From assembly GCA_964595465.1 (NCBI GenBank), contig CAZQQI010000007.1, positions 3,930 through 67,929 of the forward strand: DNA of 64,000 nucleotides. The letters are read 5' to 3'. The position numbers and the translations under genes are program-made. Source of the DNA: an uncultured Planctomycetales bacterium. Lineage in GTDB: Bacteria > Omnitrophota > Gorgyraeia > Zapsychrales > JANLHA01. Each line of letters starts with the position of its first letter. Positions within the stretch are counted from its first letter, which is position 1. Positions 2 through 20,241 of this stretch are shown in pieces. The notes under the pieces were generated by a model. It did not search any database. It was not told the DNA's origin and saw nothing but the letters and a program-made list of their open reading frames with translations.

Positions 2-943
2 CTGGGAGAGACGCGGTCGGGCTGCCGGATCAACCAGATCGGCGTTAAGGATATTGAAGAAAGCGGTAAAAAGAACGTGGTCTTTAAAGACGGTCCCAGC
101 CGGAAGATCGCCCGGGAAAAAGAGAGTCTTGACCGCTGGGCAGAGATCGCGCCTGGTCTGACGCCGCGTGTTCTGGGATTCCGTAAAGGAAAGCGTGATT
201 CCTCGATCCTGCTGGAATTTTTAGCGGGGAGGAATTTTCGCGATATTGTGATCGAAGGTTCAGGCCGGGACGCGTCCGCGGCTTTTGATCGTATCGGTCA
301 CGTTGTCGATGACCTCTGGAGCCGGACGATCCGCAAGCGGCGGGTTCAGGTCAACATGGTGGATCAGATACGGGAGCGGATCGCGGATGTTTATACCGTT
401 CATCCTGATTTCCGTGCTCCGCATTATAAGATCGGGGCGCTGGACGTTCCGTCTTTTGAAGAACGTCTGCGTTCAGCCCGTCAGATTGAAAAAGAGCTGG
501 CTGCGCCGTTTTCGGTCTGGACCCACGGGGATTTTAATTTGGACAATATTCTGTTTGATCAACAGGAAAAGCAGGTGCATTTTCTGGATGTCTACCGTTC
601 CGGCAGAAAAGATTATGTCCAGGATGTCTCGGTCTTTATTGTGTCCGCGTTCCGCCTGCCTGTTTTTGAGCCTGCCGCGCGCCGCCGCATTTATCGCACG
701 ATTGAACGCATGTATGAATTTGCCCGCGGATTCGCATCCCGGCATCATGACGCCACATTTCAGGCGCGCCTGGCCTTCGGTCTGGTGCGTTCGTTCACAA
801 CGTCTACCCGGTTTGAACTGGACCAGGAATTTGCCAAGGATATGATGCTGCGTGCTTTTTATCTGCTGGAAAAAATAACCGATCACAAGGGGGAGGCCTG
901 GGAGGAGTTCTGTATTCCCGGGCATGTTTTGACGACGGCGTGA
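2..943 (+). CDS. Protein-kinase-like phosphotransferase of the APH/choline-kinase fold. The reading frame is open to the window edge, so the gene is 5' partial.
   Basis: The HGDFNLDNILF motif matches the Brenner catalytic loop (HGDxxxxN) of the aminoglycoside phosphotransferase / choline kinase family. A DVY-like motif follows. The frame has no stop back to nt 2. Confidence 0.55.
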   Translation: MGETRSGCRINQIGVKDIEESGKKNVVFKDGPSRKIAREKESLDRWAEIAPGLTPRVLGFRKGKRDSSILLEFLAGRNFRDIVIEGSGRDASAAFDRIGHVVDDLWSRTIRKRRVQVNMVDQIRERIADVYTVHPDFRAPHYKIGALDVPSFEERLRSARQIEKELAAPFSVWTHGDFNLDNILFDQQEKQVHFLDVYRSGRKDYVQDVSVFIVSAFRLPVFEPAARRRIYRTIERMYEFARGFASRHHDATFQARLAFGLVRSFTTSTRFELDQEFAKDMMLRAFYLLEKITDHKGEAWEEFCIPGHVLTTA

Positions 944-950
944 AAGGAAG

Positions 951-1847
951 ATGCCAATGGTTTTACATAAACCCCGTGTCGGGGTTATCGGTGTTGAAGA
1001 AAAATGGTCATGCGCCCGTCTGGCTGATGCGTTCGCGGAGCGGACCGGGTTCCGCCTTCTGGTGGATCTGACAGACGTGTCTCTGGATACCGGCACCGGT
1101 GTCATCTTATGCGGAGATGTTGATATCGGGGAACTGGACGCTTTAGTGATCAAAAAGATCGGGCCTGTCTACAGTCCGGAGATCCTGGACCGTCTGAACC
1201 TGCTGCGGTATCTGGAGCGCGGAGGCCTGCCGGTATTTTCCAGTCCCCGCTCGATAGCCGGGATGGTCAACCGCCTGCATTGCACCACCGAACTTCTTCT
1301 GGCGGGGATCCCGCTTCCGGAAACCGTCATTACGGAAAAGATTTCCATAGCCGCGGATGCTGTGAGGAGATATCGTAAAGCTGTTCTTAAGCCGTTATAC
1401 ACATCAAAAGCGCGCGGCATGGTTGTTGTTGCGGACAGCCCTTCTTTGGAGGACAGCATCAGCCGCTACCAGCAGGACGGCAATCCGGTGATCTATGTTC
1501 AAAAATTTTTGAAGCATTCCGGCCGGGATCTGGGGCTGGTATTCCTCGGGGGACGTTACTTAGGAGCCTATGCCCGTGTTCAGGGTTCAGAGTCCTGGAA
1601 CACGACAACCGCTTCCGGCGGAAAGTACGAAGCCGCCCAGGTGCCGGATGATCTGGTCGGTCTGGCCCACCGCGCCCAGGAGTGTATGGATCTGGATTAT
1701 ACCTCTGTTGACCTTGTTGAGACCGCAGAGGGACCGAAGATCTTTGAAGTCTCTGCTTTTGGAGGATTCAAGGGGCTCTGGGAGACCCAGCGCATCGATG
1801 CCGCCGGGTTATACGCGGATTATGTTCTGGAAAGGATCACGGTATGA
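951..1847 (+). CDS. ATP-grasp family ligase (RimK / glutathione-synthetase-like).
   Basis: The translation shows the typical ATP-grasp layout: VLKPLYTSKARGMVVV, then YVQKFL...GRDLGLVFLGG, then C-terminal DYTSVDLVE...KIFEVSAFGGF. It lies 8 bp after the upstream kinase. Confidence 0.7.
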   Translation: MPMVLHKPRVGVIGVEEKWSCARLADAFAERTGFRLLVDLTDVSLDTGTGVILCGDVDIGELDALVIKKIGPVYSPEILDRLNLLRYLERGGLPVFSSPRSIAGMVNRLHCTTELLLAGIPLPETVITEKISIAADAVRRYRKAVLKPLYTSKARGMVVVADSPSLEDSISRYQQDGNPVIYVQKFLKHSGRDLGLVFLGGRYLGAYARVQGSESWNTTTASGGKYEAAQVPDDLVGLAHRAQECMDLDYTSVDLVETAEGPKIFEVSAFGGFKGLWETQRIDAAGLYADYVLERITV

Positions 1848-2920
1848 GGGGCCCGAAGCCGTCAGCCCGTTTTTTATTAGAACAGCGGCTGATCCTGCAG
1901 TCCGATACAATCACCTTTCAGCTGAACTTTGACGGCTGCATCATTGAAGTGCGCACCAATGACCGCTGTCTGGCCGAACAGCTGCAGAATTATTTTGCGC
2001 TTTTTCAGGATCGGCAGCATCAGGCTCACTATGTGGTTCATGCTGTTCAGCAGCCGGAATGGGATCCGGGATTGGTTTTTGAGGAACGCCCGAGGGAAGT
2101 GCCGGGCAAAAAGATCAAAGAAGCAGTGTGTGACCTTTCAGACGGCCGGGCTGTCCGCAAGATTCAAACCGGCATGATCATGGTGATGACCGGCAACCGG
2201 AATGCCGTGGTCGGACCCTGCCGTCAGAACATTAATCAGGTCATCAATTTTATTAATAACCGCTATATTGAATGGCGGCTGAATCAGGGGGCGGTTCTGC
2301 TGCATTGCGCCGGTGTTCTTTTGCGGGGCAAAGGAGCGGCTTTATGCGGATTTTCCGGCGCCGGCAAATCGACCCTGGCCCTGCATTTGATGAATGAGGG
2401 CGCCAAGTTCGTGAGTAATGATCGGATTGCGGCCGCCCGGCAGAATGATCGGGTCAGGATGTATGGTGCGGCAAAACAGCCGCGGGTCAATCCCGGAACG
2501 ATCGTCCATAATCGTTCACTCTGGCACCTGATCCCCAAACAGCGCCGTCATGAACTGCAGGGGCTCACTCCGTCCGAATTATGGGCCCTGGAAGAAAAAT
2601 ATGATGTGGACATCCTTCGTTTGTATGGACAGGACAGTTGGCGGCTGCATTGTGCGATGGATCGTCTGGTCGTTTTGAATTGGCAGCGCGGCGCCGGGAG
2701 CACGAAGATAACGGAAGTGGATCTTTCCGCCCGCCGGGATCTTTATCCCGCGTTTATGAAGGGCCCCGGCGTATTTTTCCGCCCGGGCTGCGATGATTTT
2801 TATGACACGTATTGTACGGCGGAAGCATACCGGAAATGCCTGGAAGGGGTTCCGGTCTATGAGGTCACGGGCGGGGTGGATTTTCATCACCTCTGCAGAG
2901 AACTGAAAACCTTGTTATAG
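1844..2920 (+). CDS. HprK-related P-loop kinase (HPr kinase/phosphorylase C-terminal-like).
   Basis: The Walker-A-like motif GFSGAGKSTLALHL resembles the HprK family GxSGxGKS. The start overlaps the ATP-grasp stop as ATGA, which indicates translational coupling. Confidence 0.6.
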   Translation: MRGPKPSARFLLEQRLILQSDTITFQLNFDGCIIEVRTNDRCLAEQLQNYFALFQDRQHQAHYVVHAVQQPEWDPGLVFEERPREVPGKKIKEAVCDLSDGRAVRKIQTGMIMVMTGNRNAVVGPCRQNINQVINFINNRYIEWRLNQGAVLLHCAGVLLRGKGAALCGFSGAGKSTLALHLMNEGAKFVSNDRIAAARQNDRVRMYGAAKQPRVNPGTIVHNRSLWHLIPKQRRHELQGLTPSELWALEEKYDVDILRLYGQDSWRLHCAMDRLVVLNWQRGAGSTKITEVDLSARRDLYPAFMKGPGVFFRPGCDDFYDTYCTAEAYRKCLEGVPVYEVTGGVDFHHLCRELKTLL

Positions 2921-2930
2921 GGAGGACAGA

Positions 2931-3206
2931 ATGAAACAGGAGATCAAAACCATGGGCTTTTGGACCGGAGAACAGATGATCGCTTATCTGGAAAATCTGG
3001 TTAAGGCGTATAAATCCGGCAAGATCGTTCTGGAAGAGGACGGGAAAAGAATTGAACTGCAGCCGCCCGAACAAGTGGCTGTTGAGATCAAGGCAAAGAG
3101 TTCGGAGCAAAAAGGCAAGTTCAAGCTGGCCTTTTCTTGGAAATCGCCTGATCCCTCTGAAATCCCGGAAGAACCTGAAACGGTGAAATCAAAACATTCC
3201 GTCTGA
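2931..3206 (+). CDS. Small acidic/basic amphipathic protein (91 aa). It is a candidate amphi-Trp-type partner of the upstream ATP-grasp and kinase genes.
   Basis: It sits 10 bp after the HprK-like gene. The core IAYLENLVKAYKSGKIVLEEDGKRIELQPPEQVAVEIKAKSSEQKGKFKLAFSWK ends in a conserved-looking Trp. It has no signal peptide. Confidence 0.4.
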   Translation: MKQEIKTMGFWTGEQMIAYLENLVKAYKSGKIVLEEDGKRIELQPPEQVAVEIKAKSSEQKGKFKLAFSWKSPDPSEIPEEPETVKSKHSV

Positions 3207-3372
3207 ACTTGGGTTTTTCTTGATCAGCAAAGCTAAGGAGTTGCGGCGTCTTTTTTGCTTGCAAAGCGGCTGCGGATCATGTCAAAGAAATTGTCTTGTA
3301 CTTTTTTAAAATAAGAATAAAATTTATGAGGAGTTGATGGTGGAAGAAGGTTAATAGCCAAGGAGGGGAAGA

Positions 3373-3714
3373 ATGGTGCGTATTATCACAGGTGCTTTTT
3401 TGTTTTTTTTGCTGGGAGCGGCTGGAGTGTGGGCGCATCCCCCGCAAAGGATTGTCGCGGATTTTGACACGGCCAGAAATGAATTAAATCTTAAGGTCAC
3501 GCATTCCACGTCCAGTCCCGGATACCATTTTGTCAAGAAAGTCATTATTACAATTAATGGGGAAAAGGTGAAAGAAGAGAATCTTTCCGCGCAGAAAAGT
3601 GACGTGTTTGAATATTCCACCCGGCTTTATGGTGTTGGTCAGGGGGACCGTATCGGGATCGAGGCGCAATGCAGCCGTGCCGGCAGCAAGAAAGCCTCAT
3701 TCACGGTTGAGTGA
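3373..3714 (+). CDS. Small secreted protein of unknown function (113 aa) with a signal peptide.
   Basis: A strong RBS (aaggagggg) precedes the ATG. The hydrophobic N-terminus FLFFLLGAAGVWA is followed by a beta-rich mature region with His residues and a single Cys. Confidence 0.5.
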   Translation: MVRIITGAFLFFLLGAAGVWAHPPQRIVADFDTARNELNLKVTHSTSSPGYHFVKKVIITINGEKVKEENLSAQKSDVFEYSTRLYGVGQGDRIGIEAQCSRAGSKKASFTVE

Positions 3715-3811
3715 TCCGCGGGAATTTCTGAGATGGCTGTATTGTTAGAAGTGAAAACAGTTGGGTTAGGATTATCCTGATATTCTGATTGTTCGTGTTT
3801 TTCATGAAAAG

Positions 3812-3847
3812 AGCCTGCATAGAGATTTTCTTGCAGGCTTTTTTGTT
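3812..3847 (+). terminator. Rho-independent terminator.
   Basis: An 8-bp perfect stem (agcctgca / tgcaggct) is followed by TTTTTGTT. Confidence 0.5.
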
Positions 3848-3909: not shown

Positions 3910-6627
3910 ATGAGCGAGGCCGAACACTTTTTTCGATATCTGGATGACGGCGTCAGTTTTCAGTCAGAAAAAGCCGCGGATATCCGTGAGCTGTATTTTC
4001 CGTTATGCGGTGTGGACGGGAAGAGCGCGAAGTCTTCTATCACGCCGTATCTCAGCGGTGATATCAAGGTCGACCGGGACCGCTATATTACCCGACCGGT
4101 GTCCCGGCAGGATCTGCGTTTTCCTCTGCGCAATTTCTTTCTCTACATTGACAAGAGTCGAACGGTTGCGTTGACCGACCGCGGCGAACATATGGAAACT
4201 GCGGTTCGGATTGGTCAGCTGTGGCATCAGTTGACCGTTCGGGATCTGAATAATGGTCTGGAAATAGAGGCCCTGAATTTTGTCCCGGCGGACGGCGAGC
4301 CGGTAGAATTGATGAGGGTCGTCGTCCGTAATAAATCCGACAGCCTCCGCGTGGTGACACCCACGGGCTGTATTCCGATCTTCGCCCGGTCTCTGGCCAA
4401 TAAGCATGACCATGAACATGTTACGTCTCTCTTGAACCGCGTTGAGCAGCTGCCTGAGGGTATTCTTGTCTTTCCGACCATGAGATTTAATGAGCAGGGG
4501 CATTATGAGAACCATGATCAGTACTTTGTTTTCGGAATTGAAGGCAACGGGGTTTTGCCGGCGGGAAGTTTCCCCACGGTCGAGAGTTTTCTGGGCCGGG
4601 AGGGAACATTTGAGCGGCCGCGGGCGGTTTATGAAAATATGCCGCCGCGGATGATGGATCCCGTGCAGATCCAGGGAAAAGAGATCGCCGGCGCCCTGCG
4701 TTTTGACGCGGTCGAGATCGCGCCGGGAGAGTCCCGGGATTATTATATACTGATCGGTGCGGCGGAAAACGAGCAGCAGGCGCGTCAGTTTTTTTCGCGT
4801 TATCAGAATGCTTCCCATTTTGAAGCGGCTTTTGAGAAGGTGCGCAAATACTGGGACTCCCGTTCCACGGCTGTGATGTGCCGCACTGCCGACTCCGCGT
4901 TCGATTCCTGGATGCGCTGGGTCGCGATCCAGCCGGTTTTGCGCCGTATCTTCGGCTGTTCTTTTTTGCCGGATCATGATTATGGTAAAGGCGGACGCGG
5001 CTGGCGCGATCTCTGGCAGGATCTTTTATCGCTGATCCTGATCGAACCCGAGCATGTCCGCGGGGCTTTGATTAATAATTTCGCGGGCGTGCGTATTGAC
5101 GGGAGTAACGCCACGATCATTGGAGATAAACCCGGAGAATTTTCAGCAGACCGCAACGCGATCACCCGTGTCTGGATGGACCACGGTGCCTGGCCTGTCA
5201 TGACGACGTTAATGTATATAGAACAGTCAGGAGACAGTGATATCCTTTTTGAGCGCCAAAAATATTTCCGGGATCCCCAGCAGTCACGCAGCCGGTATAA
5301 AGATGAAAATTGGCAGGCCTCTGACGGGAATGTACTTAAAACTTCTGCCGGTAAGGCCTACCTGGGGACGGTGCTCGAACATATGCTGGTGCAGACACTG
5401 GTCCAGTTTTTTAATGTCGGAGAGCATAATATGATCCGTCTGGAAAGCGCTGACTGGAACGACGGTCTGGATATGGCCTTTGAACGGGGAGAAAGTGTGG
5501 CCTTCAGCGCTTTTTATGCGGGCAATCTTATGGCCTTGGCCGATATGCTGGAATATCTGAAGATGTTCAGCGGCCTGCCCAGCGTGACCGTACTGAAAGA
5601 GCTTGAGATCCTGTTTGATTTGGACGGACAGGCTGAAGAATGGGAGGATCATTCTGCCAAGCAGAAACGGCTGGATCATTATTTTTCCGCTGTTCAGCCT
5701 GACATCAGCGGGGAAGTGTCTGAAGTCGGCATTGAAACCCTGTCCGCTGATCTCCGCAGAAAAGGGCATTGGCTGATCGAGCGCATCCGGTTTCAGGAGT
5801 GGATAACGGCCGAAGAGGACGGGCAAATGTTCGGGTGGTTTAACGGGTATTATGACAATCAGGGTCGCCGGGTTGAGGGACAAAGTGAAGGGGATATCCG
5901 CATGACATTGACCGGACAGGTTTTTGCTCTGATGGCGGGGGCTGCGGGCCCGGAACATGCGCGCGGGATCATATCGAGTGCGGATCATTTTCTGAGAGAA
6001 CCGCGTCATGGCGGTCATCGGCTGAATACGGATTTCGGTGTGCGTAATGATCTGGATTTGGGCCGGGCGTTCAGTTTTGCGTACGGGACCAAAGAGAACG
6101 GCGCTGTTTTTTCTCACATGACCGTGATGTATGCCTACGCTCTGTATCGGCGCGGGTTTGCGCGGGAAGGATACACGGTCATACAAGCCCTTTATCATCT
6201 GGCCATGGATTCGGAACACAGCGGGATCTATCCTAATCTTCCGGAGTATTTTGATAGCCAGGGGAAAGGTATGTATTGTTATTTAACCGGTTCGGCCAGC
6301 TGGCTGGTGCTGACAATGCTCACGCAGAGTTTCGGAATGAGAGGGGATAAGGGAGATCTTTGTCTTGAGCCCAAGCTGGTAAGCGAACAGTTTGATGACG
6401 GAGGCTGCGCCGCCGCAGAAAGTTATTTTGCCGGGCGGCGGATCATTGTGTCGTATCATAATGCGGATCGCCTGGACTACGACCGTTACCGTATCGGCGC
6501 AGTCCGTGTCGGAGAAAGATCTTTGCCGGAGAAGCATATTGACTGCCGCAGGGCTTTGGTCCCGCGCGGGGAGCTTTCAGCAACCTCCGGCCCTCTTGCG
6601 GTCCGGGTGGAGTTGGTCGGCAAATAA
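3910..6627 (+). CDS. Glycoside phosphorylase / hydrolase with an (alpha/alpha)6-barrel, GH94-like (cellobiose/chitobiose phosphorylase-like).
   Basis: At 905 aa it fits the family size. An ADWNDGLDM motif resembles the DWND catalytic region of GH94 phosphorylases, and the C-terminal half shows barrel-type conservation. Confidence 0.5.
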   Translation: MSEAEHFFRYLDDGVSFQSEKAADIRELYFPLCGVDGKSAKSSITPYLSGDIKVDRDRYITRPVSRQDLRFPLRNFFLYIDKSRTVALTDRGEHMETAVRIGQLWHQLTVRDLNNGLEIEALNFVPADGEPVELMRVVVRNKSDSLRVVTPTGCIPIFARSLANKHDHEHVTSLLNRVEQLPEGILVFPTMRFNEQGHYENHDQYFVFGIEGNGVLPAGSFPTVESFLGREGTFERPRAVYENMPPRMMDPVQIQGKEIAGALRFDAVEIAPGESRDYYILIGAAENEQQARQFFSRYQNASHFEAAFEKVRKYWDSRSTAVMCRTADSAFDSWMRWVAIQPVLRRIFGCSFLPDHDYGKGGRGWRDLWQDLLSLILIEPEHVRGALINNFAGVRIDGSNATIIGDKPGEFSADRNAITRVWMDHGAWPVMTTLMYIEQSGDSDILFERQKYFRDPQQSRSRYKDENWQASDGNVLKTSAGKAYLGTVLEHMLVQTLVQFFNVGEHNMIRLESADWNDGLDMAFERGESVAFSAFYAGNLMALADMLEYLKMFSGLPSVTVLKELEILFDLDGQAEEWEDHSAKQKRLDHYFSAVQPDISGEVSEVGIETLSADLRRKGHWLIERIRFQEWITAEEDGQMFGWFNGYYDNQGRRVEGQSEGDIRMTLTGQVFALMAGAAGPEHARGIISSADHFLREPRHGGHRLNTDFGVRNDLDLGRAFSFAYGTKENGAVFSHMTVMYAYALYRRGFAREGYTVIQALYHLAMDSEHSGIYPNLPEYFDSQGKGMYCYLTGSASWLVLTMLTQSFGMRGDKGDLCLEPKLVSEQFDDGGCAAAESYFAGRRIIVSYHNADRLDYDRYRIGAVRVGERSLPEKHIDCRRALVPRGELSATSGPLAVRVELVGK

Positions 6628-11406: not shown

Positions 11407-12876
11407 ATGTCTACGCATAAAGTCCATATCCAATTTCCTCACAGCAAACGTCTCCGCAGGCCGACTGAAGCGGTCATCGCGCAAGTGGTTCGGGAGTTAT
11501 TTTCTGATAGCCGGCGCCCGGTTTTGATCGCGGTGGGTGGTCCGGGCGGGATCGGAAAATCCCGTTTCAGCCGCGCTTTAAAGAAAGAGCTGAAAGAAGC
11601 CGCCGTTCTCACATTGGATGATTATAAAACGCCTCGGGTCGAACGCGCGCGAAGCGGTGTCTTCGGCGCTGATCCCCGCGCGAACAAGATGGATCTTATC
11701 CGGGAACATCTGCGGGCGCTCCGGGAACGCCGCGCGGTCCGCAAGCCGGTTTATGATGCCGTGACCGGGGGTGCGGACCGTGACGAGTCTTTTGCACCGG
11801 AGTCTTTCGTCATCCTTGATGGGGAGATCTCGACTTATCGTCAATTTCGTGATCTCGTAGATTTTGCTGTCTTTATTGACGCGGATTGGAAGACCCAGCT
11901 GGCGACCCGTCTGGACCGGGATATTCAGGTCCGGAAATACAGCCATGAAAAGGCTGTGGCTACGTTTCTGCAAAGCAATTTACGGGAATTCAGTGTTCAT
12001 GGAGCAGAGAGTAAGAGCTGGGCGGATCTCCATCTTTTCTGTCTCGATGATTACCGCCTGGTGATCGAAGCCTTTCATGAAGATGTTTTTCAGCGTTGCC
12101 GTCCATTTCTGGACGATGGTATTCATACCCTTGACCTCAGGGAAGGGGTTATTGTTCCTGTGCTGACTCCGTTCCAAGAAGACGGTTCTGTCGATCAGCA
12201 GGCCTTTGCTGAACACCTGGCTTTTTTAAGCAGTGCCGGGATCCGCCGGATCCTGGTCAGCGGGTTTAGCGGAGAATTTTTTTCTTTGACGTATCAAGAG
12301 AGGCGGCTCCTGCTTAAGTTAGCCTGCGAATATTTTCCAGGGATGATACTCTTTCATACCGGCGCGGAAGGTCTTGCTCAGATCGAGGCCGAGGCGCATT
12401 GGGCAGATACTTATGGGGCTGACGGTATTGTTGTCAGCGTGCCCTATTTTTTAAGATCTTTTTCAGCAGAAGGTTTGCGCGCGTTCTTCCAGAGTGTAGG
12501 CGAAAGTGTTCAGCATCAGCTGGTCGTTGATGATCGGGAAGGCCTGATACCGGACGCGTTATACAAAAAGATCCCCTGCCATGCGGTAATTACTCGGCCT
12601 GCTTCCGGTTTTGAGAGGCGGATCGTTTTTTCGGATGATCTTGAATGTCCCGGTCCGGGCGCGGGAAGGATCAGCCAATTGGCGAACGCTTTTCCTGAGT
12701 GTTTCACCTCCGGGAGTGCGGGAAAAGGGTTTGTTATGGACATGGCGGACATGCCGTCCCGGCACGCGGGAAATATAGAAATGATCTCGCCGCTCAAACA
12801 GGCCCTGTCCCGGCGGATAGCGGGCTATCCGTCACGGGTGCGGCTTCCTCTGCTTGACGCAGCCGAGGAAAAATAA
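11407..12876 (+). CDS. Fusion protein: an N-terminal uridine-kinase/phosphoribulokinase-like P-loop domain joined to a C-terminal DapA/NAL-family (class I aldolase-like) domain.
   Basis: The N-terminus has the GGPGGIGKS P-loop and PRK/Udk-like core (VILDGE...FAVFIDAD). The C-terminus has the DHDPS-like VIVPVLTPFQEDGSVD...ILVSGFSGEFFSLTYQER. The region where the Schiff-base Lys is expected reads IPCHAVITRPASG, with no Lys. Confidence 0.55.
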   Translation: MSTHKVHIQFPHSKRLRRPTEAVIAQVVRELFSDSRRPVLIAVGGPGGIGKSRFSRALKKELKEAAVLTLDDYKTPRVERARSGVFGADPRANKMDLIREHLRALRERRAVRKPVYDAVTGGADRDESFAPESFVILDGEISTYRQFRDLVDFAVFIDADWKTQLATRLDRDIQVRKYSHEKAVATFLQSNLREFSVHGAESKSWADLHLFCLDDYRLVIEAFHEDVFQRCRPFLDDGIHTLDLREGVIVPVLTPFQEDGSVDQQAFAEHLAFLSSAGIRRILVSGFSGEFFSLTYQERRLLLKLACEYFPGMILFHTGAEGLAQIEAEAHWADTYGADGIVVSVPYFLRSFSAEGLRAFFQSVGESVQHQLVVDDREGLIPDALYKKIPCHAVITRPASGFERRIVFSDDLECPGPGAGRISQLANAFPECFTSGSAGKGFVMDMADMPSRHAGNIEMISPLKQALSRRIAGYPSRVRLPLLDAAEEK

Positions 12877-12934
12877 GGGGGCTGGCGACAAAAATCCTTT
12901 TGAATAAGGTGATTTCATTTTATACTGTTAATAT

Positions 12935-13324
12935 ATGAAGATGCGTTATTTCAAAATTTCAGCTGCCGTCCTTTTTCCTTTGATACTGGGCTGTGCTTCG
13001 GCAGTCCAGAGAGACTCCCGTTTAGCCACAGAAAAGGGGAGTCTGCTTAACACCAGTGAGACAGAGGATCTCGGAGAGGCGGCCGCGGCGCTCAAGTCAG
13101 TGGCCGGGTCACTCACGGAGAAAGAAATGACCAATGAAGAGGCCCGCGAGGCAGTGCAAAGGCTGAAAAATGACGAGGAGGCCCAATCAGCTGTCCGGGC
13201 GATATCGACCTCGTTTGATCATGAGGTGTCCAATGTCAAGTATTCCCCGGTGACCGGAAAGCGTTACAGCGGGGACCTGGAATATGATCCCGAGACCGGG
13301 GTGAAGCTGCTGCCGGTGGAGTAG
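12935..13324 (+). CDS. Hypothetical lipoprotein.
   Basis: A signal peptide carries the lipobox LILGC. The mature protein is acidic and low in complexity. Confidence 0.5.
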   Translation: MKMRYFKISAAVLFPLILGCASAVQRDSRLATEKGSLLNTSETEDLGEAAAALKSVAGSLTEKEMTNEEAREAVQRLKNDEEAQSAVRAISTSFDHEVSNVKYSPVTGKRYSGDLEYDPETGVKLLPVE

Positions 13325-13332
13325 GAGAGTTT

Positions 13333-13851
13333 ATGTTTGAAGGACTAAAGGGTAAAATTCTGGTGCTCGTGCTGATCATTTTTGCGGCGCGCGCGGCGGT
13401 TCACAATCTGCATGACCCTTTCCGCTATAAAGGTCCCTGGTATACGGTTAACCGTCCGGTAGGATGGAAGGTCGAAGAAGTCGAAAATGAAGTTCTTTTC
13501 AAAAGTCCGAAAACCCGCGGGGCAGTCCCTGAGGCGATCTTTTCCATCTACGGGATCAAGCCCGAGCAGGCGATCTTCATGGAGGATTTTTTTGCTGAGG
13601 TCCTGGAGCAGCTTCGTTATCAGAAGGGTGAACTGCTGGACAAGGGGCAGATCGAGATCGATGGGCAGGTTTCCCATTGGACCCTGTTCAAGAACCGCAC
13701 CCCGCCCCTGGCGATCCTGACTTTTTATACGGTGGATGATTTTAACCGGCTTACCAAGATTCAGTACATTGCTCCTTATCAAACCTTTGATGACTATCGG
13801 GAAAAATTTGATGCGTTCAAAGACAGCTTTCAATTCAAGGGAATTTTTTAA
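13333..13851 (+). CDS. Hypothetical exported protein.
   Basis: An N-terminal hydrophobic signal (ILVLVLIIFAARAAV) is followed by a mixed alpha/beta region with no recognisable catalytic motifs. Confidence 0.4.
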   Translation: MFEGLKGKILVLVLIIFAARAAVHNLHDPFRYKGPWYTVNRPVGWKVEEVENEVLFKSPKTRGAVPEAIFSIYGIKPEQAIFMEDFFAEVLEQLRYQKGELLDKGQIEIDGQVSHWTLFKNRTPPLAILTFYTVDDFNRLTKIQYIAPYQTFDDYREKFDAFKDSFQFKGIF

Positions 13852-13927
13852 GCTGTTAATTTTACATGAATGAATGCCTTCTCCTTACAGCATTAGAATT
13901 CTCCCCTCAGGATCTTTTCCGAGGTTT

Positions 13928-13977
13928 TTCACATGAATGTCACACCCATCCCGCCGTTTCTTCACTCACTATCCACA
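13928..13977 (+). promoter_or_regulatory. Pho-box-like direct repeats (hexamers with 11-bp periodicity) upstream of phoBR.
   Basis: TTCACA-N5-GTCACA lies at 13928-13944 and TTCACT-N5-TCCACA at 13961-13977. A TTTACA-tgaat-GAATG element lies near 13866. Confidence 0.3.
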
Positions 13978-14269
13978 TACTTTAAGCAGAGAAATGGATC
14001 AATGTTATACAGAAAGTGTGGGGAACTATGCAGAAAAAGATTTTTTTGCGTTATCGGATGAGGTATCAACCACGATTAGCCTCGAAAATCCGGTATAAAA
14101 AAGAAACACGGTCCAGCATTCTCGATTGGCGGCCTCAAGAAAATGTTCCGCGTCAGTTCAAAAACCGCCGGTTTATTTTTGCGGGCTGAAGAGATTGCCG
14201 GGATAGCTGTTGCGGGAAGTTCGGATTTTGGATACTATATTTATAAGGAATACATAAGGAGTAAAGGAT

Positions 14270-14965
14270 ATGGGGACAAAAGAATCTATCCTGATCGTTG
14301 AAGATGACAAGCATATCGCCAAGCTGATCCGGTATAATCTGGAAAAAGAAGGGTATGACTGTTCCCTGGTCATTACCGGGGAAGACGCCCTGGAAACGCT
14401 GGAAACAGCCCCGATCGATCTGATCGTGCTTGATGTCATGCTGCCCAAGATGGACGGGTTTGAAGTCTGTAAACGAATCCGTCAGGATAAATCCGTGTCC
14501 CATATTCCGATTATTATGCTCACAGCGCGCGGAGAAGAAGTCGACCGCATTGTGGGCCTGGAACTCGGCGCAGACGATTACATGATCAAGCCGTTCAGCC
14601 CGCGGGAGCTGATTCTGCGTATTAAATCCATTTTGCGCAGAGGAATACACAAAGAAGATGCCGAGCAGGATGTCTTGTCGGCGGATTGCATATTGGTCAA
14701 TATTCCTCGCCATACGGTTAAAGTGGATGGAGAAAAGGTCAATTTGACGCCGATGGAATTTAAACTGCTGACCACGATGCTGAAACGTAAAGGCCGTGTT
14801 CAATCCCGTGATATTCTGCTCGATAAAGTGTGGGGGATTTCGGCGGACGTGACCACCCGTACCGTGGATACTCATATTAAGCTTTTACGTCAGAAGCTGG
14901 GTTCTGCCGGGAAACTGATCGAAACCGTGCGCGGCCTGGGGTATAAGATCAATGATGACGAATAA
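14270..14965 (+). CDS. phoB: OmpR/PhoB-family response regulator, likely the phosphate regulon regulator.
   Basis: The receiver domain (LIVEDD...DLIVLDVMLP..DG) is followed by a winged-helix output domain (LTPMEFKLL...VRGLGYKI). Assignment as phoB rests on synteny with the phoR-like kinase and pstSCAB-phoU. Confidence 0.75.
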   Translation: MGTKESILIVEDDKHIAKLIRYNLEKEGYDCSLVITGEDALETLETAPIDLIVLDVMLPKMDGFEVCKRIRQDKSVSHIPIIMLTARGEEVDRIVGLELGADDYMIKPFSPRELILRIKSILRRGIHKEDAEQDVLSADCILVNIPRHTVKVDGEKVNLTPMEFKLLTTMLKRKGRVQSRDILLDKVWGISADVTTRTVDTHIKLLRQKLGSAGKLIETVRGLGYKINDDE

Positions 14966-16733
14966 GACAATCCGCTTTCCGGTCTATATCAAGATCACTA
15001 TAATTTTTACTCTCATTACCGCTGTTCTGCTTATCGGCCTATATCTGTCTTTACGCAGCAATTTCCGGGAAATGGCTTACAGCAACATTGAGCGGAGGCT
15101 TGAACACGAGATCTCCCTGGTGAGATACATGGCCGAACAGCAGCTTCCGGCAATGCATGCTGATGCCTTCGCGGACCGTATCGGCCGCGCCCTGGATTTG
15201 CGGGTCACGGTTATTGATATGACGGGGCGGGTGATCGGGGATTCTCAAGTTCCCGGACAGCACCTTGATCAGCTGGAGGACCACAGCACACGTCCGGAAG
15301 TTCAGCAGGCCCTGGCTGGAGAGATCGGCCGGAGCCGGCGCTTCAGTACAACGATCCAGCAGAATTTATTATATATGGCTGAAACCTATAGTCAGCCTCC
15401 GCAAGGGATTATCCGCCTGGCGATTCCGCTCATTGATATTGCGCAGATCTCCCGCCGTTTGAATAAGGACCTGTTGGGCGCGCTTGCCGGTGTTTTCTTT
15501 TTTACGATCATCATTGCTGTGATCGTTTCCCGCTGGATCACCCGCCCTTTGGCAGAGATCGTCCGCGGCGCCCGGCGTATTTCTGTAGGGAATTTCGGCA
15601 CCCGTATTATGATCAAGGCACGGGATGAGATCGGGGATCTGGCCCGGGTCTTTAATGATATGAGTGATCAGATCCGTTCCCGGATCAGTGACGTCTCTAT
15701 AGAGAAATCCCGTCTGGAAGCCGTTTTTTCCAGTATGATGGAGGGGGTTCTGGTCATAGACCGTCAGGGGCAGATCCTTCTGCTGAATGATGCTCTGCGT
15801 AATCTGCTGCATATCTCTAATAAGGCCGAAGGCCTCAGGCCTCTGGAGGTGATCCGTAACGCGGATATTCAGCAGATGGTCACGGAATGTCAGCAGAAGA
15901 AAGGGGCGGTTCTTTCCCGCGAAGTGGTTTTCATGCGGGAAGAAGAACGGGTTCTGCAGGTCCATGGGGCCTCTGTGATCAGAGAAGGAGAGAGTGAAGG
16001 GGTCGTGCTGGTTTTCCATGATATTACAGATATGCGTCATCTGGAAAAGGTTCGCAGGGATTTTGTGGCGAATGTTTCTCATGAATTACGCACTCCGATC
16101 GCCAGCATCAAAGGATATGCTGAGACATTATTAGACGGCGCTTTGCAGGATCAGGAGAACGCTGAAGAATTTGTGCGGATCATCTTTGCTGATTCCGACC
16201 GGTTGGCAAAATTGGTTGATGATATTCTGGCGCTTTCGGCGATCGAATCAGGAAAATTGATCCATGAGTTCGGCCCGTGTGAGCTTGAGCCTTTGATCGA
16301 TCGTGTTTTTCAGAGCGTTAAGGTTTTGGCTGAGGCGCGCCGGGTCCGCTTGGTCAAGCAGGGAGATTTTCAGGATCTTATCGTTCATGGAGATGAGATG
16401 AGCCTGTTCCGTATGCTGTTAAATCTGGTCGATAATGCTGTGAAGTACAATTCAGAAGGCGGTACGGTTACGGTTTCAGCCTTCCGTGAAGGGACGCGGA
16501 TCATTTTAAGTGTCCGCGACACCGGTCAGGGAATCCCCGCGGAAGATCAGTCCCGCATCTTTGAACGGTTTTACCGTGTTGATAAAGCGCATTCCCGCCA
16601 GATGGGCGGCACCGGGCTCGGTCTGGCCATCGTCAAACATATTGTCCAAGCGCACGGCGGTATGATCTCCCTGGAAAGTGCCCCCGGTGAAGGTTCCGTC
16701 TTTACTGCAGACTTACCTGCCTCTGACGCTTAG
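14952..16733 (+). CDS. phoR: Sensor histidine kinase with two TM helices, a periplasmic domain, and HAMP, PAS, HisKA and HATPase domains (PhoR-like).
   Basis: The H-box is HELRTPIASIKGY. The G-boxes are GGTGLGLAIVK. The start overlaps the response regulator stop. Confidence 0.75.
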   Translation: MMTNKTIRFPVYIKITIIFTLITAVLLIGLYLSLRSNFREMAYSNIERRLEHEISLVRYMAEQQLPAMHADAFADRIGRALDLRVTVIDMTGRVIGDSQVPGQHLDQLEDHSTRPEVQQALAGEIGRSRRFSTTIQQNLLYMAETYSQPPQGIIRLAIPLIDIAQISRRLNKDLLGALAGVFFFTIIIAVIVSRWITRPLAEIVRGARRISVGNFGTRIMIKARDEIGDLARVFNDMSDQIRSRISDVSIEKSRLEAVFSSMMEGVLVIDRQGQILLLNDALRNLLHISNKAEGLRPLEVIRNADIQQMVTECQQKKGAVLSREVVFMREEERVLQVHGASVIREGESEGVVLVFHDITDMRHLEKVRRDFVANVSHELRTPIASIKGYAETLLDGALQDQENAEEFVRIIFADSDRLAKLVDDILALSAIESGKLIHEFGPCELEPLIDRVFQSVKVLAEARRVRLVKQGDFQDLIVHGDEMSLFRMLLNLVDNAVKYNSEGGTVTVSAFREGTRIILSVRDTGQGIPAEDQSRIFERFYRVDKAHSRQMGGTGLGLAIVKHIVQAHGGMISLESAPGEGSVFTADLPASDA

Positions 16734-16767
16734 AATTCAGAGACGAAATATCCCGGACGGCAATGCC

Positions 16768-16806
16768 TTCACATACTTATCACAATCTCTTCATATATTG
16801 CACATG
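16768..16806 (+). promoter_or_regulatory. Pho box array: TTCACA-N5-ATCACA-N5-TTCATA-N5-(CACATG), followed by a TAATAT -10 element.
   Basis: Three to four hexamer repeats at an exact 11-bp period occupy 16768, 16779, 16790 and 16801. A -10-like TAATAT lies at 16816-16821 upstream of the small-ORF/porin/pstSCAB/phoU operon. Confidence 0.45.
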
Positions 16807-16848
16807 CTGCCCCGTTAATATGAACTTGGCAAAGAAAGGAGGTGAACC

Positions 16849-17052
16849 ATGGATTTGATAACCCGTGCCGACAGACCTTCGAGTCTGCACAAAGATGTTA
16901 TTTCTCGCTGTCTGAGAACAGAAATTCAATGTCTGGAAAGTCTTCTGAAAACCCTTGAGCAGTCAGAATGGCCGAAGGATGATTATATACAGGAGTCTTT
17001 GAAATTTTCCTGTTCCAACCTCAAAGACTTGACCCGTTATCTGTCGAATTAA
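16849..17052 (+). CDS. Hypothetical 67-aa protein. It is the first cistron of the putative Pho-regulated operon.
   Basis: A strong SD (aaggaggtgaacc) precedes the ATG. No motifs are recognised. Confidence 0.35.
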   Translation: MDLITRADRPSSLHKDVISRCLRTEIQCLESLLKTLEQSEWPKDDYIQESLKFSCSNLKDLTRYLSN

Positions 17053-17067
17053 TCAAGGGGGAGAGAA

Positions 17068-18348
17068 ATGAAACGAATTTTAAGTTTGCTGTTAGCGGTC
17101 ATGATGCTGTCCGGTGTTTCGGCTCTGACGGCCCGTGCCGCGGAGATCGATGTCCTGCTGAATAAACTGGTGGAAAAAGGTGTTCTGACGCCGCTGGAAG
17201 CCCAGATCATTCAGGATGAAACAAAACAGGATGTGGCAGAGCAGATCGCTAAGGGCACGCATAATACCCTGCCAAGCTGGCTTCAGACGATCAAGCTCAA
17301 AGGGGATCTGCGTCTGCGTTATCAGGCGGATGAAAAGGAAAGCGATACCAGTGTCCGCAATCGCGGCCGATACCGTCTGCGCCTGGGAGCGTATGCCCAG
17401 CCTCATCCTGATCTGGCTGTCGGTATGCGTATTGCCACCGGAAGCAGTAATGACAGCCGGTCCACTAATGAGACCATGGGAGACAATTTCAGCAAGGACG
17501 ATCTCTGGATCGATCTGGCCTATGCTGAGTACACTCCGACGACCAATTTTTCATTGATCGGCGGAAAATTCAAACGCAAATCCTATCTGTGGGCGGCGAC
17601 CGACCTGTTGTGGGACGGAGATATCAATCCGGAAGGTGTGTCCGCACACGTCAGTTATCCGCTGATGGGCGATACCACCTTATTTGGAAACGCGGGTGCC
17701 TGGCTGATCGATGAAAAAGATGGGCAGTCGACCAGCGATACGGATCCGTTCCTGCACTATTATCAGGGCGGGATGAAGATGAAGTCCGGGAACCTGGACG
17801 GGAAATTGGCCGCGATCTATTACGGATTCGATGGTGTTCAGGGCGAGCCGTTGGATAACTCCGCGGAGAGTAACACGGTAATCGATACGGTAATCAATGA
17901 AAAAGACGTAGGTTTGCTGGTTTATGATTACGATGCTGTGGGGGCTTCTGCCGAGTTCGGCATCAAAAAGCTCTTTGGCGGCCTGCCTATGGGGATCGAT
18001 AACAGGATCGCGGTGTTCGGCGATTATATCCAGAACATCTCGGATAATGTGGAGAAAGACAGCGGATTTGCTGTCGGTGCCAAATTCGGGCATAAGAGCG
18101 TGAAGAAACCCGGGACCTGGCAGATGAAGTACATCTATGCCGAACTGGAAAAAGACGCCTTTATCGACGCTTATCCGGATTCTGACCGCTACGGAGGGCA
18201 AACCGATATTCAGGCGCATGAACTTTCCTGGAAATATGCCTGGAAAAAGAATGTAACCTTCGGCCTGGATTACTATCATAGCGATAAATTGGATGCGGAC
18301 TCTGACGCCGAAGATCTGCTGCAGGCAGACCTTCTGATCAAATTCTAA
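17068..18348 (+). CDS. Outer-membrane beta-barrel porin, probably a phosphate-selective OprO/OprP-like porin.
   Basis: It has a signal peptide (ALTARA-AE), an N-terminal coiled segment, a porin-like alternating pattern (KLKGDLRLRYQ...) and a C-terminal aromatic residue (KF). It sits immediately upstream of pstS. Confidence 0.5.
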   Translation: MKRILSLLLAVMMLSGVSALTARAAEIDVLLNKLVEKGVLTPLEAQIIQDETKQDVAEQIAKGTHNTLPSWLQTIKLKGDLRLRYQADEKESDTSVRNRGRYRLRLGAYAQPHPDLAVGMRIATGSSNDSRSTNETMGDNFSKDDLWIDLAYAEYTPTTNFSLIGGKFKRKSYLWAATDLLWDGDINPEGVSAHVSYPLMGDTTLFGNAGAWLIDEKDGQSTSDTDPFLHYYQGGMKMKSGNLDGKLAAIYYGFDGVQGEPLDNSAESNTVIDTVINEKDVGLLVYDYDAVGASAEFGIKKLFGGLPMGIDNRIAVFGDYIQNISDNVEKDSGFAVGAKFGHKSVKKPGTWQMKYIYAELEKDAFIDAYPDSDRYGGQTDIQAHELSWKYAWKKNVTFGLDYYHSDKLDADSDAEDLLQADLLIKF

Positions 18349-18367
18349 CCAGTCAACCGAAATAGGA

Positions 18368-19246
18368 GTGATTATGAAAACATGGACACGAATTTTAGCA
18401 ATGATTATGATCCTTGCTGTGGGTGCCGGTGCTGCCGGCGCGGAGATGATTCAGATCAAGGGATCGGATACCCTGATCAACATGGTTCAGCGTATAGCCG
18501 AGGTCTATATGGAAAAGAACCCCGGGGCTATGATCGCGGTCACCGGTGGGGGGTCAGGGACCGGGATCGCGGCCTTGATCAACGGCAAATGTGATATCGC
18601 CAATGCCTCACGCACGATGAAGCCTAAAGAGACCAGCAGGGCGGTCGCCGCGGGGGTTCAGCCGATCCGTGTTGTTGTGGCTATGGACGGCTTAAGTGTT
18701 ATCGTGAACGATAAAAATCCTATTGATAAACTGACGGTTCCTCAATTAGGCAAGATCTTCCGCGGCGAAGTGACTAATTGGTCTGATCTCGGCGGTCCGG
18801 ATATGCCGATCACGCTCTATGGGCGTCAGTCGAATTCCGGGACGTTCGTCTTTTTTATGGATCAGATCCTCAAAGGAGACTATTCTCCTAAAATGAACCG
18901 CATGAACGGTAACGCCCAGATCGTGGCCGCAGTCCGCAGTGATCCGTCCAGTATCGGTTATGTCGGTGTGGGATATGTCAAAAACGCAGGCGGGATCACT
19001 GTCCTTAAGGTCGCACGCAATGCTGATGCCGAATACGCCAGTCCTCTGAGCACAGCAGATGTTCAAAGCGGCGCGTATCCGATCGCCCGTCCTTTGAACC
19101 AGTATCTGAACGGAACACCGGAAGGGGATGTGCGCAAGTTCATTGAGTTTGAGCTGAGCCCTGAAGGACAGAAGGTCGTTGAAGAAGAAGGTTTCTTTGT
19201 GCTTCCTGAGGAATACGAAGCATATAACAAAAAAGCAGGACTTTAA
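18368..19246 (+). CDS. pstS: Phosphate ABC transporter substrate-binding protein PstS.
   Basis: A signal peptide is followed by the PstS-family core (GSDTL...TGGGSGTGIAAL...ANASR). Confidence 0.85.
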   Translation: MIMKTWTRILAMIMILAVGAGAAGAEMIQIKGSDTLINMVQRIAEVYMEKNPGAMIAVTGGGSGTGIAALINGKCDIANASRTMKPKETSRAVAAGVQPIRVVVAMDGLSVIVNDKNPIDKLTVPQLGKIFRGEVTNWSDLGGPDMPITLYGRQSNSGTFVFFMDQILKGDYSPKMNRMNGNAQIVAAVRSDPSSIGYVGVGYVKNAGGITVLKVARNADAEYASPLSTADVQSGAYPIARPLNQYLNGTPEGDVRKFIEFELSPEGQKVVEEEGFFVLPEEYEAYNKKAGL

Positions 19247-19270
19247 TTGCAGAATTAATGGTGTTTGATT

Positions 19271-19325
19271 ATAATATGCTCGCTGCGGGACCGCCTGGCA
19301 GGGGATTCTGCAGTGAGCATATTAT
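19271..19325 (+). promoter_or_regulatory. Intercistronic hairpin between pstS and pstC. It may stabilise the pstS mRNA segment or act as a partial terminator.
   Basis: A 15-bp inverted repeat (ATAATATGCTCGCTG / CAGtGAGCATATTAT, one mismatch) encloses a 25-nt loop. Confidence 0.4.
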
Positions 19326-19342
19326 CAACCGGGGTGTTGGGC

Positions 19343-20230
19343 ATGAATAAAGCCAGAATAAAAGAGAAACTGATTGAAGTTGTTTTTTTCGTCAACGGGA
19401 TGATCGTGGTCGGGGCCCTGGCCGCGATCTTTCTGCTGCTTTTGCGCAGTGCCTTGCCTGCTTTTGAAGAGATCAAGATCACTGAATTTTTATTCAGCGC
19501 CCGCTGGAATCCCACATCGTACTATAAAGAAACATACGGTATCCTGGCTATGGTGGCCAGCACGTTTATGGTGACTATCGGCGCCTTACTGATCGCGGTG
19601 CCTCTGGGGGTCGGGACGGCCGCGTATTTGTCTGATGTGGCCAGCCCAAGGGTGCGTGAGATCGCCAAGCCTGTCGTCGAGATCCTGGCCGGGATCCCCT
19701 CGGTCGTTATCGGGTTTCTGGGTATCGTCCTGGTGGGGCCGATGATCGCTAAATTAACGGGTCAGTATAACGGCCTGAACGTGCTTAACGGTTCCGTGCT
19801 TCTGGCGGTTATGGCCTTGCCCACGATCGTCAGTTTGTCCGAGGACGCTCTGGGCAGTGTTCCCAACGGCTTCCGCGATGCCTCATTGGCGCTGGGCGCC
19901 AACCCCTGGCAGACCCTGATCCGGGTGCGTATCCCGGCGGCGTCTTCCGGGATCCTGGCCGCCTGCATGCTGGGGATGGGGCGGGCCATCGGTGAGACCA
20001 TGACCGTTTTGATGGCGACCGGGAACGCTCCGGCGATGCCGTCTTCGATCCTTGATTCTGTGCGGACCATGACCGCGACCATAGCCATTGAATTGGGCGA
20101 AGTGCCGTATTTCACGACGCATTATTATGCTTTGTTCGCTATCGGACTGGTCCTGTTTATTATTACCTTTATCATCAATATGATCTCAGATATTGTTCTG
20201 GAAAATTATAAAAAGAAAACCCGTTATTAG
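19343..20230 (+). CDS. pstC: Phosphate ABC transporter permease PstC.
   Basis: It carries the PstC-type EAA loop region (ALGANPWQTLIRVRIPAASSGI). The start is taken at the internal ATG (MNKARIKEK) after the hairpin. Confidence 0.85.
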   Translation: MNKARIKEKLIEVVFFVNGMIVVGALAAIFLLLLRSALPAFEEIKITEFLFSARWNPTSYYKETYGILAMVASTFMVTIGALLIAVPLGVGTAAYLSDVASPRVREIAKPVVEILAGIPSVVIGFLGIVLVGPMIAKLTGQYNGLNVLNGSVLLAVMALPTIVSLSEDALGSVPNGFRDASLALGANPWQTLIRVRIPAASSGILAACMLGMGRAIGETMTVLMATGNAPAMPSSILDSVRTMTATIAIELGEVPYFTTHYYALFAIGLVLFIITFIINMISDIVLENYKKKTRY

Positions 20231-20241
20231 GATGACCGGCT

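Follow-up and report, generated by a model that had tools for sequence, protein, structure and literature searches.

A reduced GAK-system operon of Candidatus Omnitrophota, its PHP-fold phosphoesterase and a possible link to phosphate status

Introduction

Which system is encoded by the closely packed genes that open the 64,000-nucleotide (nt) stretch of contig CAZQQI010000007.1 analysed here (hereafter, the window), and what could such a system do? An earlier note on this DNA had pointed to the GAK system, a computationally defined gene neighbourhood (TIGR04354-TIGR04358), and had suggested that a small protein is ligated and phosphorylated there. In the present analysis the GAK interpretation was supported and the observation behind it confirmed. 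The window almost certainly begins with the downstream two-thirds of a six-gene GAK-system operon of Candidatus Omnitrophota, in a reduced form without the CofD-like and XXXCH-domain components. The full operon encodes, in this order, a PHP-fold metal phosphoesterase (U388), a first amphi-Trp protein (AT1), a PhoU+APH kinase, an ATP-grasp ligase, the HprK-related kinase B and a second amphi-Trp protein (AT2). This locus is an ordinary copy of a widespread and already automatically annotated system, and what is new here is the recognition of a five-gene core, the PHP nature of U388 and the phosphate link. Regarding function, we tentatively favour, without holding it to be probable, a phosphate-linked cytoplasmic circuit that would phosphorylate, ligate and dephosphorylate the amphi-Trp proteins.

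Identity of the genes in the window

The comparison of the encoded proteins with the NCBIfam hidden Markov models (HMMs) placed three of them in the families that give the GAK system its name, each above the curated cut-off and far beyond chance by E-value. The ATP-grasp ligase of the RimK/LysX/MptN superfamily (951..1847, + strand, 298 amino acids (aa); the NCBI record places its start 6 nt later) matched TIGR04356 over its full length (residues 9-296) with 389.5 bits against a cut-off of 300 (E 7.6e-117). The HprK-related kinase B (1844..2920, + strand, 358 aa, P-loop GFSGAGKST) reached 395.1 bits with TIGR04355 (cut-off 200, E 2.7e-118), and AT2 (2931..3206, + strand, 91 aa, with a tail, predicted to be disordered, that is first acidic and then basic) reached 58.8 bits with TIGR04354 (cut-off 31, E 4.8e-16). 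Additionally, a protein 100% identical to kinase B is named "HprK-related kinase B" in the Candidatus Omnitrophota metagenome-assembled genome (MAG) GCA_046542295.1 (contig JBKHBP010000004.1). The two accessory families of the system, TIGR04357 and TIGR04358, were not matched by the locus.

The first open reading frame (ORF1, 2..943, + strand) is cut by the window edge, as had been noticed from the letters, where it was described as a protein-kinase-like phosphotransferase. It covers the 3' part (residues 233-545 of 545 aa) of a gene that begins 695 nt before the edge and encodes an APH-fold kinase (PF01636, 44.6 bits) preceded by two PhoU repeats. ORF1 and the ATP-grasp gene (ORF2) are separated by 7 nt, the start of the kinase B gene (ORF3) overlaps the ATP-grasp stop by 4 nt (ATGA), and ORF3 and the AT2 gene (ORF4) are separated by 10 nt. 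Therefore, the four tightly packed ORFs and the ATGA overlap stand as described, but the statement that all gaps are of 8 bp or less does not, the ORF3-ORF4 gap being the only numerical slip of the earlier note. Both the P-loop reported for the HprK-related kinase (GFSGAGKSTLALHL, seen in ORF3) and the conserved-looking Trp with which the core of the small protein ends, and which proved to be the invariant W70 of ORF4, were recovered.

Membership in better-known families was rejected for each enzyme. In the case of the ATP-grasp protein, the next-best families were MptN (153 bits) and rimK_fam (113.1 bits against 143.4), both under their own cut-offs, as were LysX (92.9 bits, cut-off 275.6) and the RimK equivalog (47 bits, cut-off 331). 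It was not assigned to the RimK/LysX tail ligases, given these scores and the variable amphi-Trp C-termini, which offer no Glu-ending partner. Kinase B is not an HPr(Ser) kinase/phosphorylase, since it scored 31.4 bits with TIGR00679, which needs 240, and 27.9 with PF07475, which needs 33.3; the Walker-A region alone aligns with that family, and the kinase B profile matches the HPr kinase/phosphorylase catalytic domain in the PDB with E 5e-6. ORF1 has the APH fold but is not an aminoglycoside-resistance enzyme of the APH(3') type (34.6 bits against a cut-off of 205 for NF033068), and it falls far under every aminoglycoside-resistance model. The stand-alone PhoU family (TIGR02135, about 220 aa) was likewise discarded (76.8 bits against 130), the two PhoU repeats fused to a kinase making this a PhoU-domain protein.

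The upstream part of the operon and the nature of U388

The remaining third of the operon was found in L001, which is the same contig with 5.8 kilobases (kb) more upstream sequence (window position equals L001 position minus 3929; L001 and L002 are the same contig). The earlier note had proposed to look upstream for CofD-like and XXXCH-domain partners, and neither is there: for the CofD-like family (TIGR04357), no tblastn match better than E 0.6 was obtained in the 64-kb window and none in the 5.8 kb upstream, and the XXXCH domain (TIGR04358) had no match in the window or in L001. Instead, the extension revealed U388, a second amphi-Trp protein and the PhoU domain of ORF1. The complete ORF1 gene (L001 3235..4872) encodes a 545-aa protein with two PhoU repeats (PF01895, 82.9 bits) in addition to the APH domain. 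Directly 5' of it lies the gene of AT1 (91 aa, with a basic tail; TIGR04354, 56.4 bits), and upstream of AT1 the 388-aa U388 is encoded.

U388 had no match in Pfam (PF02811 included), NCBIfam, PADLOC or a profile search of PDB sequences. However, alignments of 25 and 40 homologues revealed the invariant motifs HWHPE, PTxHN, ExDC, a lone His, PHPE, EVWNPQS and GDDxH, and the protein has the features of a PHP enzyme, a (beta/alpha)7 barrel with HxH, H, E, H, H and DxH metal ligands. When secondary structure and alignment were combined, the invariant residues fell at the C-terminal ends of the barrel strands, where the metal ligands of PHP enzymes sit. The most probable role of U388 is therefore that of an active phosphoesterase that depends on metal. 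Its homologues form about 1,600 clusters, nearly all annotated "hypothetical protein", a number close to the about 1,500 clusters of the kinase.

The best structural matches of U388, the BAD_1165 family and the RNase AM of Vibrio cholerae, raise the question of whether the system processes nucleotides or RNA ends. In such a pathway the PHP enzyme, the P-loop kinase and the ligase would have nucleotides or the 5'/3' ends of RNA as substrates, and the amphi-Trp proteins would be adaptor or regulatory subunits of the single enzymes. The likeness of U388 to RNase AM/pAp-phosphatase-type PHP enzymes agrees with it, as does the pairing of one enzyme gene with each amphi-Trp gene, and some AT2 tails are rich in Lys, Ala and Pro, so that polyanion binding is possible. 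The ATP-grasp protein, on the other hand, belongs to the amino-acid ligase (RimK) branch and to no nucleic-acid ligase family, no conserved RNA-binding or nuclease domain is encoded nearby, and most AT2 tails are acidic, that of the window included. Taken together, RNA-end processing is considered improbable.

Conservation of the gene neighbourhood

A pattern scan with one genome per species identified at least 587 species with a relative of kinase B. A set of 80 loci was fetched from species representatives spanning Desulfobacterota, Planctomycetota, Nitrospirota, Nitrospinota, Ignavibacteria, Spirochaetia, SAR324, Zixibacteria, Gemmatimonadota and others, and their ORFs were searched with the proteins of the window operon. 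It was verified that the genes are conserved as neighbours across these phyla, in a near-invariant collinear block with the order U388, amphi-Trp 1, PhoU-APH kinase, ATP-grasp ligase and kinase B. Among the 56 loci with enough flank on both sides, all five core genes were found in 48, a further amphi-Trp protein in 48, a CofD-like gene in 44 (TIGR04357; 538 bits in the example of locus L025) and an XXXCH-domain protein in 28. When present, the CofD-like gene usually follows the kinase directly and the XXXCH gene directly precedes U388.

The PhoU-APH kinase was detected in 60 of the 62 loci with at least 5.5 kb of upstream sequence and the ATP-grasp ligase in 61. Thus, the phosphotransferase described by the earlier note as additional is present but is no extra, being a core component of the system. 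U388 and the PhoU+APH kinase, for neither of which a GAK model exists, are more constant than the CofD-like or XXXCH proteins. The CofD-like protein is regarded as accessory because it is present in 44 of the 56 comparable loci, and it is missing from the other 12 as it is from the window locus. The two closest relatives of this locus carry the identical six-gene unit between unrelated flanks, with kinase B proteins 47-48% identical to that of the window and, in one of them, a U388 that is 67% identical.

The flanks were also screened for further partners. When the flanking ORFs were clustered all against all and the Pfam families of 125 upstream neighbours were counted, no family of transporter or further enzyme dominated. 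A compact operon with variable flanks could be expected of an anti-phage defence or conflict system, and the kinase domain shows a sub-threshold match to the TCAD9 conflict-system kinase-like domain (22.8 bits against a cut-off of 40). However, the eight proteins gave no PADLOC match at E up to 0.01, effectors such as a nuclease, an NTPase-STAND or a toxin-like protein are missing, and the neighbours are housekeeping or phosphate-homeostasis genes, which makes a role in defence poorly supported and very improbable.

A conserved protein of 47-61 aa with the Cys pattern C...CxxC...C was observed in this locus, just upstream of U388 (L001 1480..1665, about 2.3 kb before the window edge), in its two closest relatives and in three other loci without XXXCH; besides L001, its positions are L083 4753..4926, L084 4732..4899, L014 5065..5238, L026 5420..5653 (- strand) and L013 158..343. 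It looks like a zinc ribbon and may be an alternative accessory component in the slot held elsewhere by XXXCH. In a Desulfococcus MAG (L073 2433..4977), the PhoU-APH gene is split into three ORFs and the ATP-grasp gene into two, which could reflect a decaying copy or assembly frameshifts.

Catalytic motifs and links to phosphate

Judging by their intact motifs, the enzymes of the system appear to be active. Conservation among 73 orthologues of the PhoU-APH kinase is at least 97% for the two ExxxD motifs of the PhoU repeats, the Lys of beta3, the Glu of alphaC, HGDxNxxN and the Asp that binds Mg, and ORF1 itself has retained both this Asp and the catalytic loop HGDxxxxN. Likewise, the nucleotide- and Mg-binding residues are conserved in 78 ATP-grasp orthologues, and the closest solved relatives of this ligase by sequence are LysX/ArgX and RimK.

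A link to phosphate is suggested by the neighbours of the operon in other genomes. A pstC-pstA-pstB-phoU cluster adjoins the GAK operon in about 11 of the 80 loci, often directly upstream and on the same strand. The upstream cases are L019 (1599..5087), L021, L023, L043 and L058 (directly upstream, same strand), as well as L005, L065 and L010, and the other pst-phoU-adjacent loci are L017 (17248..20754), L003 and L049. PhoB-like regulators also occur near the GAK operon in pst-linked loci. Additionally, an MgtA-type Mg2+-translocating P-type ATPase (TIGR01524, about 1100 bits) adjoins the GAK genes in L028 (6097..8889) and L072 (9875..12718), both reduced loci without U388. The remaining flanks are heterogeneous; an ACR3 arsenite pump adjoins the GAK genes in L036 (11924..13066). 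The enrichment of pst genes near GAK is suggestive, not proof.

The same enzymes could serve a small-molecule pathway, which is the chief rival of the circuit proposed here and, although doubtful in itself, nearly as likely. The metabolite built or recycled by them would be phosphorylated and glutamylated, for instance a tail like that of a cofactor, a compatible solute or a reserve of organic phosphate, and would resemble the tails of phospho-hydroxyacid and glutamate in F420 and methanopterin. The amphi-Trp proteins would then serve as carriers, chaperones or regulators instead of substrates. The best matches of the ATP-grasp protein outside the GAK family, MptN and CofF, are both small-molecule alpha-glutamate ligases, a CofD-like phosphotransferase accompanies the system in most loci, and the usual substrates of APH-fold kinases and of TrpH-type PHP enzymes are small molecules or nucleotides. 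The amphi-Trp tails, as described below, also lack a conserved acceptor residue. However, no conserved transporter, CofC-like nucleotidyltransferase or other biosynthetic enzyme is encoded nearby, and the CofD-like protein is dispensable, being absent here, from the two closest relatives and from the 12 loci mentioned above. Moreover, this pathway leaves unexplained why two or three amphi-Trp paralogues are constantly retained, each beside a specific enzyme gene.

The amphi-Trp proteins

Alignments of 32 and 54 amphi-Trp proteins contained a single invariant column, that of W70 in ORF4. Two classes could be distinguished. AT1 proteins are always encoded 5' of the PhoU-APH gene, have about 90 aa and usually carry an N-terminal F.HES.QD motif; AT2 proteins follow kinase B or the CofD-like protein and have a long tail that is acidic or sometimes rich in Lys, Ala and Pro. 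Both classes share a helix and a four-stranded sheet ending in ...K.S.K.SWK, so that a folded domain of about 70 residues with a conserved core is followed by variable tails that are predicted to be disordered, and each paralogue gene adjoins one particular enzyme gene. A strand motif h-x-I-x-S/T, located 10-12 residues after the Trp, was recognised in 70 of 72 AT1 and 39 of 49 AT2 proteins.

The family is small, with 1769 clusters at 50% identity among 1.84 billion. No informative fusion partner was found among the best 150 of these 1769 clusters, and the fold has no detectable structural relative in the PDB. The one mention of an amphi-Trp protein found in the literature (PMC13490349) concerns Dissulfuribacter thermophilus, for which DITHS69_2464 is listed as one of the 20 proteins of highest abundance.

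In some Desulfovibrionaceae, the acidic AT2 tail is replaced by a long Lys/Ala/Pro-rich tail resembling histone H1 (L008 11609..12664, L031 4824..5351, L033 12177..12722, L046 9707..10264 and L069 12247..12690), which could bind polyanions such as DNA or polyphosphate.

A small protein encoded beside an ATP-grasp enzyme and a kinase might also be the precursor peptide of a cluster for a secreted natural product, that is, a ribosomally made, post-translationally modified peptide (RiPP) such as the graspetides or phosphorylated lasso peptides. ATP-grasp and HPr-kinase-like enzymes are known from RiPP clusters (PMC8498205), and the ligase has weak matches to ATP-grasp RiPP maturases. The match to TIGR04187, for instance, amounts to 29 bits and lies far under the cut-off of 350, amphi-Trp proteins are folded 70-residue domains with the conservation in the core and not in the tail, no conserved protease, cyclase, RRE/PqqD or exporter is encoded nearby, and the secreted 113-aa neighbour described below is not conserved. 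A RiPP cluster is accordingly a poorly supported and very improbable explanation.

A possible phosphate-linked circuit

The circuit that we tentatively prefer would be self-contained and cytoplasmic and tied to phosphate status, which it would report or buffer. In a write/erase cycle, the amphi-Trp proteins would be modified on their disordered tails, to which two kinases of different folds would add phosphate, while the RimK/LysX-like ATP-grasp enzyme would join an amino acid, most likely glutamate, to a carboxylate and the PHP enzyme U388 would take phosphate off. Phosphate would be sensed by the PhoU+APH kinase via its fused PhoU domain. In the HPr kinase/phosphorylase family, to which kinase B is related, inorganic phosphate inhibits and reverses the characterised members, and this would be the sensing route of kinase B.

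Several lines of evidence led to this proposal. Protein modification is suggested because the nearest solved relatives of the ATP-grasp enzyme, LysX/ArgX and RimK, have the tails of small proteins as their targets; small proteins or peptides are also the substrates of HPr kinase relatives, and there are protein- or peptide-directed precedents in the HprK, RimK/LysX and PHP (CpsB-type) families. The amphi-Trp proteins are the candidate substrates because of these enzyme-family precedents, the gene pairing, the predicted disorder of their tails and a fusion ORF in locus L053 (1013..2446), in which 477 aa join kinase B to an AT2-type amphi-Trp protein through a 12-residue linker. The link to phosphate is proposed because the PhoU motifs are kept in the fused kinase, pst-phoU genes adjoin the operon in part of the loci and the Mg2+ ATPase does so in two.

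Several observations weigh against this circuit. The main objection, as judged from the alignments, is the absence of an invariant acceptor residue: an invariant Ser, Thr or Glu or a C-terminal acceptor was sought in the amphi-Trp tails and none was found, only the Trp and a few structural positions being constant. We therefore claim no modification site, there being no conserved C-terminal Glu and no invariant Ser/Thr in the tails, and when we infer, as the earlier note did, that the small protein may be ligated and phosphorylated, this same lack counters us. The S/T of the post-Trp motif is only about 50-60% conserved (about half of AT1), both amphi-Trp proteins of the window locus are without the h-x-I-x-S/T motif, and the Ser of the N-terminal ES.QD motif of AT1 is replaced by Phe in this locus. 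The best cross-family HMM match of the ATP-grasp enzyme is MptN, a small-molecule ligase, and APH-family kinases mostly act on small molecules. In addition, the L053 linker reads as a translated intergenic spacer, and the ORF, from a Nitrospina MAG, may be a true fusion or result from a lost stop codon or a sequencing or assembly error. Finally, the pst linkage concerns about 14% of the loci, many of them from related Desulfobacterota, and there are no pst genes in the window.

A more specific and unlikely version of the circuit would see the GAK core as a bacterial phosphate (and perhaps Mg2+) homeostasis pathway not recognised before, in which the amphi-Trp proteins serve as HPr-like phospho-carriers or switches. 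The PhoU-gated and the phosphate-reversible HprK-like kinases would write the mark, the RimK-like ligase would tag and the PHP phosphatase would erase. By analogy with the F420 tail, the mark in the CofD-containing versions could be a protein-linked phospho-hydroxyacid-glutamate group.

Neighbouring genes

Downstream of AT2, a 113-aa protein with a signal-peptide-like N-terminus, probably cleaved after VWA, is encoded at 3373..3714 (+ strand). Its gene has its own Shine-Dalgarno sequence and is preceded by a 166-nt AT-rich spacer, and a strong hairpin with a U-run terminator (3807..3845, -20.2 kcal/mol, z -4.6) lies 3' of it. The small secreted protein before the terminator that the earlier note had included was therefore recovered, but it is not part of the system: it had no Pfam, NCBIfam or PADLOC match, and its homologues among 82 loci were restricted to L001/L002, that is, to the duplicate of the window contig. 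A GH94-family glycoside phosphorylase-like gene follows (3910..6627, 905 aa). Both the 113-aa protein and the GH94 gene were rejected as members for lack of conservation, and these two and the VIT1 gene are regarded as neighbours, not components, because they recur solely in the duplicate of the window contig. GH94 next to GAK genes was seen twice only, in the window locus and in L028, where a 2852-aa GH94-containing protein (12414..20969) follows a partial GAK module.

In 12 loci, a GT4 glycosyltransferase domain occurs in a protein of about 810 aa that also shows a weak PHP match at its N-terminus and is encoded within 10 kb of the system (L012 1414..3867 (- strand), L014, L015, L017, L019, L024, L034, L050, L066, L076, L077 and L081). 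Its best NCBIfam match, under the cut-off, is GlcN-phosphatidylglycerol synthase, and it might make glycolipids when lipids are remodelled during phosphate starvation.

Significance and comparison with known systems

The constant core of the GAK system differs from its name and exceeds it: two kinases and the ATP-grasp ligase are joined by a hidden PHP phosphoesterase and by two small proteins. The system is present in species-level genomes, at least 587 of them, from many phyla that are mostly anaerobic, and it is encoded in organisms with a central place in the cycling of sulfur and nitrogen. A literature search on the GAK system and its member families yielded no publication, no experiment and no proposed function for the system, and a paper on the fitness of D. 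alaskensis under phosphate limitation makes no mention of HPr kinase, ATP-grasp, RimK, aminoglycoside phosphotransferase or CofD. The PhoU fusion, the adjacency of pstCAB-phoU in about one locus in seven and the MgtA-type pump in two loci provide a testable lead to a phosphate-linked modification of proteins or metabolites. The six-gene form without CofD is a minimal version and is therefore the simplest to reconstitute.

Compared with the GAK system as defined, the window locus shares the ATP-grasp ligase, kinase B, the amphi-Trp protein and the gene order of 80 other loci, and differs by the missing CofD-like and XXXCH proteins and by amphi-Trp tails without the post-Trp motif. In the PHP family, U388 is related to the TrpH/YciV (RNase AM)/BAD_1165 phosphoesterases but is only 14-17% identical to them, and it is extended by about 60 residues at the N-terminus and interrupted by a helical insertion of about 130. 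As in the tail-forming enzymes of F420 and methanopterin (CofD, CofF and MptN), canonical GAK loci combine a CofD-like protein with an MptN/CofF-like ligase; however, CofC, CofE and the genes of Fo or pterin synthesis are absent, and in the window locus so is the CofD-like gene.

The pairs LysW/LysX (ArgX) and RimK-S6 resemble the GAK system in that an ATP-grasp enzyme of the same superfamily is encoded beside a small protein with a disordered acidic tail, and a kinase is used in the LysW pathway as well. Unlike the substrates of the LysX/RimK enzymes, the amphi-Trp proteins have unconserved C-termini that do not end in the Glu these enzymes need, and the GAK locus has no reductase, aminotransferase or hydrolase. 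The HPr kinase/phosphorylase with HPr and Crh resembles GAK in that an HprK-type P-loop kinase has a small protein as its partner, and in the Bacillus yvcJ(rapZ)-yvcK(CofD-like)-whiA-crh cluster there is a CofD/YvcK-like protein, as in most GAK loci. The dependence of HprK/P activity on phosphate and pyrophosphate agrees with the PhoU and pst links of the GAK system.

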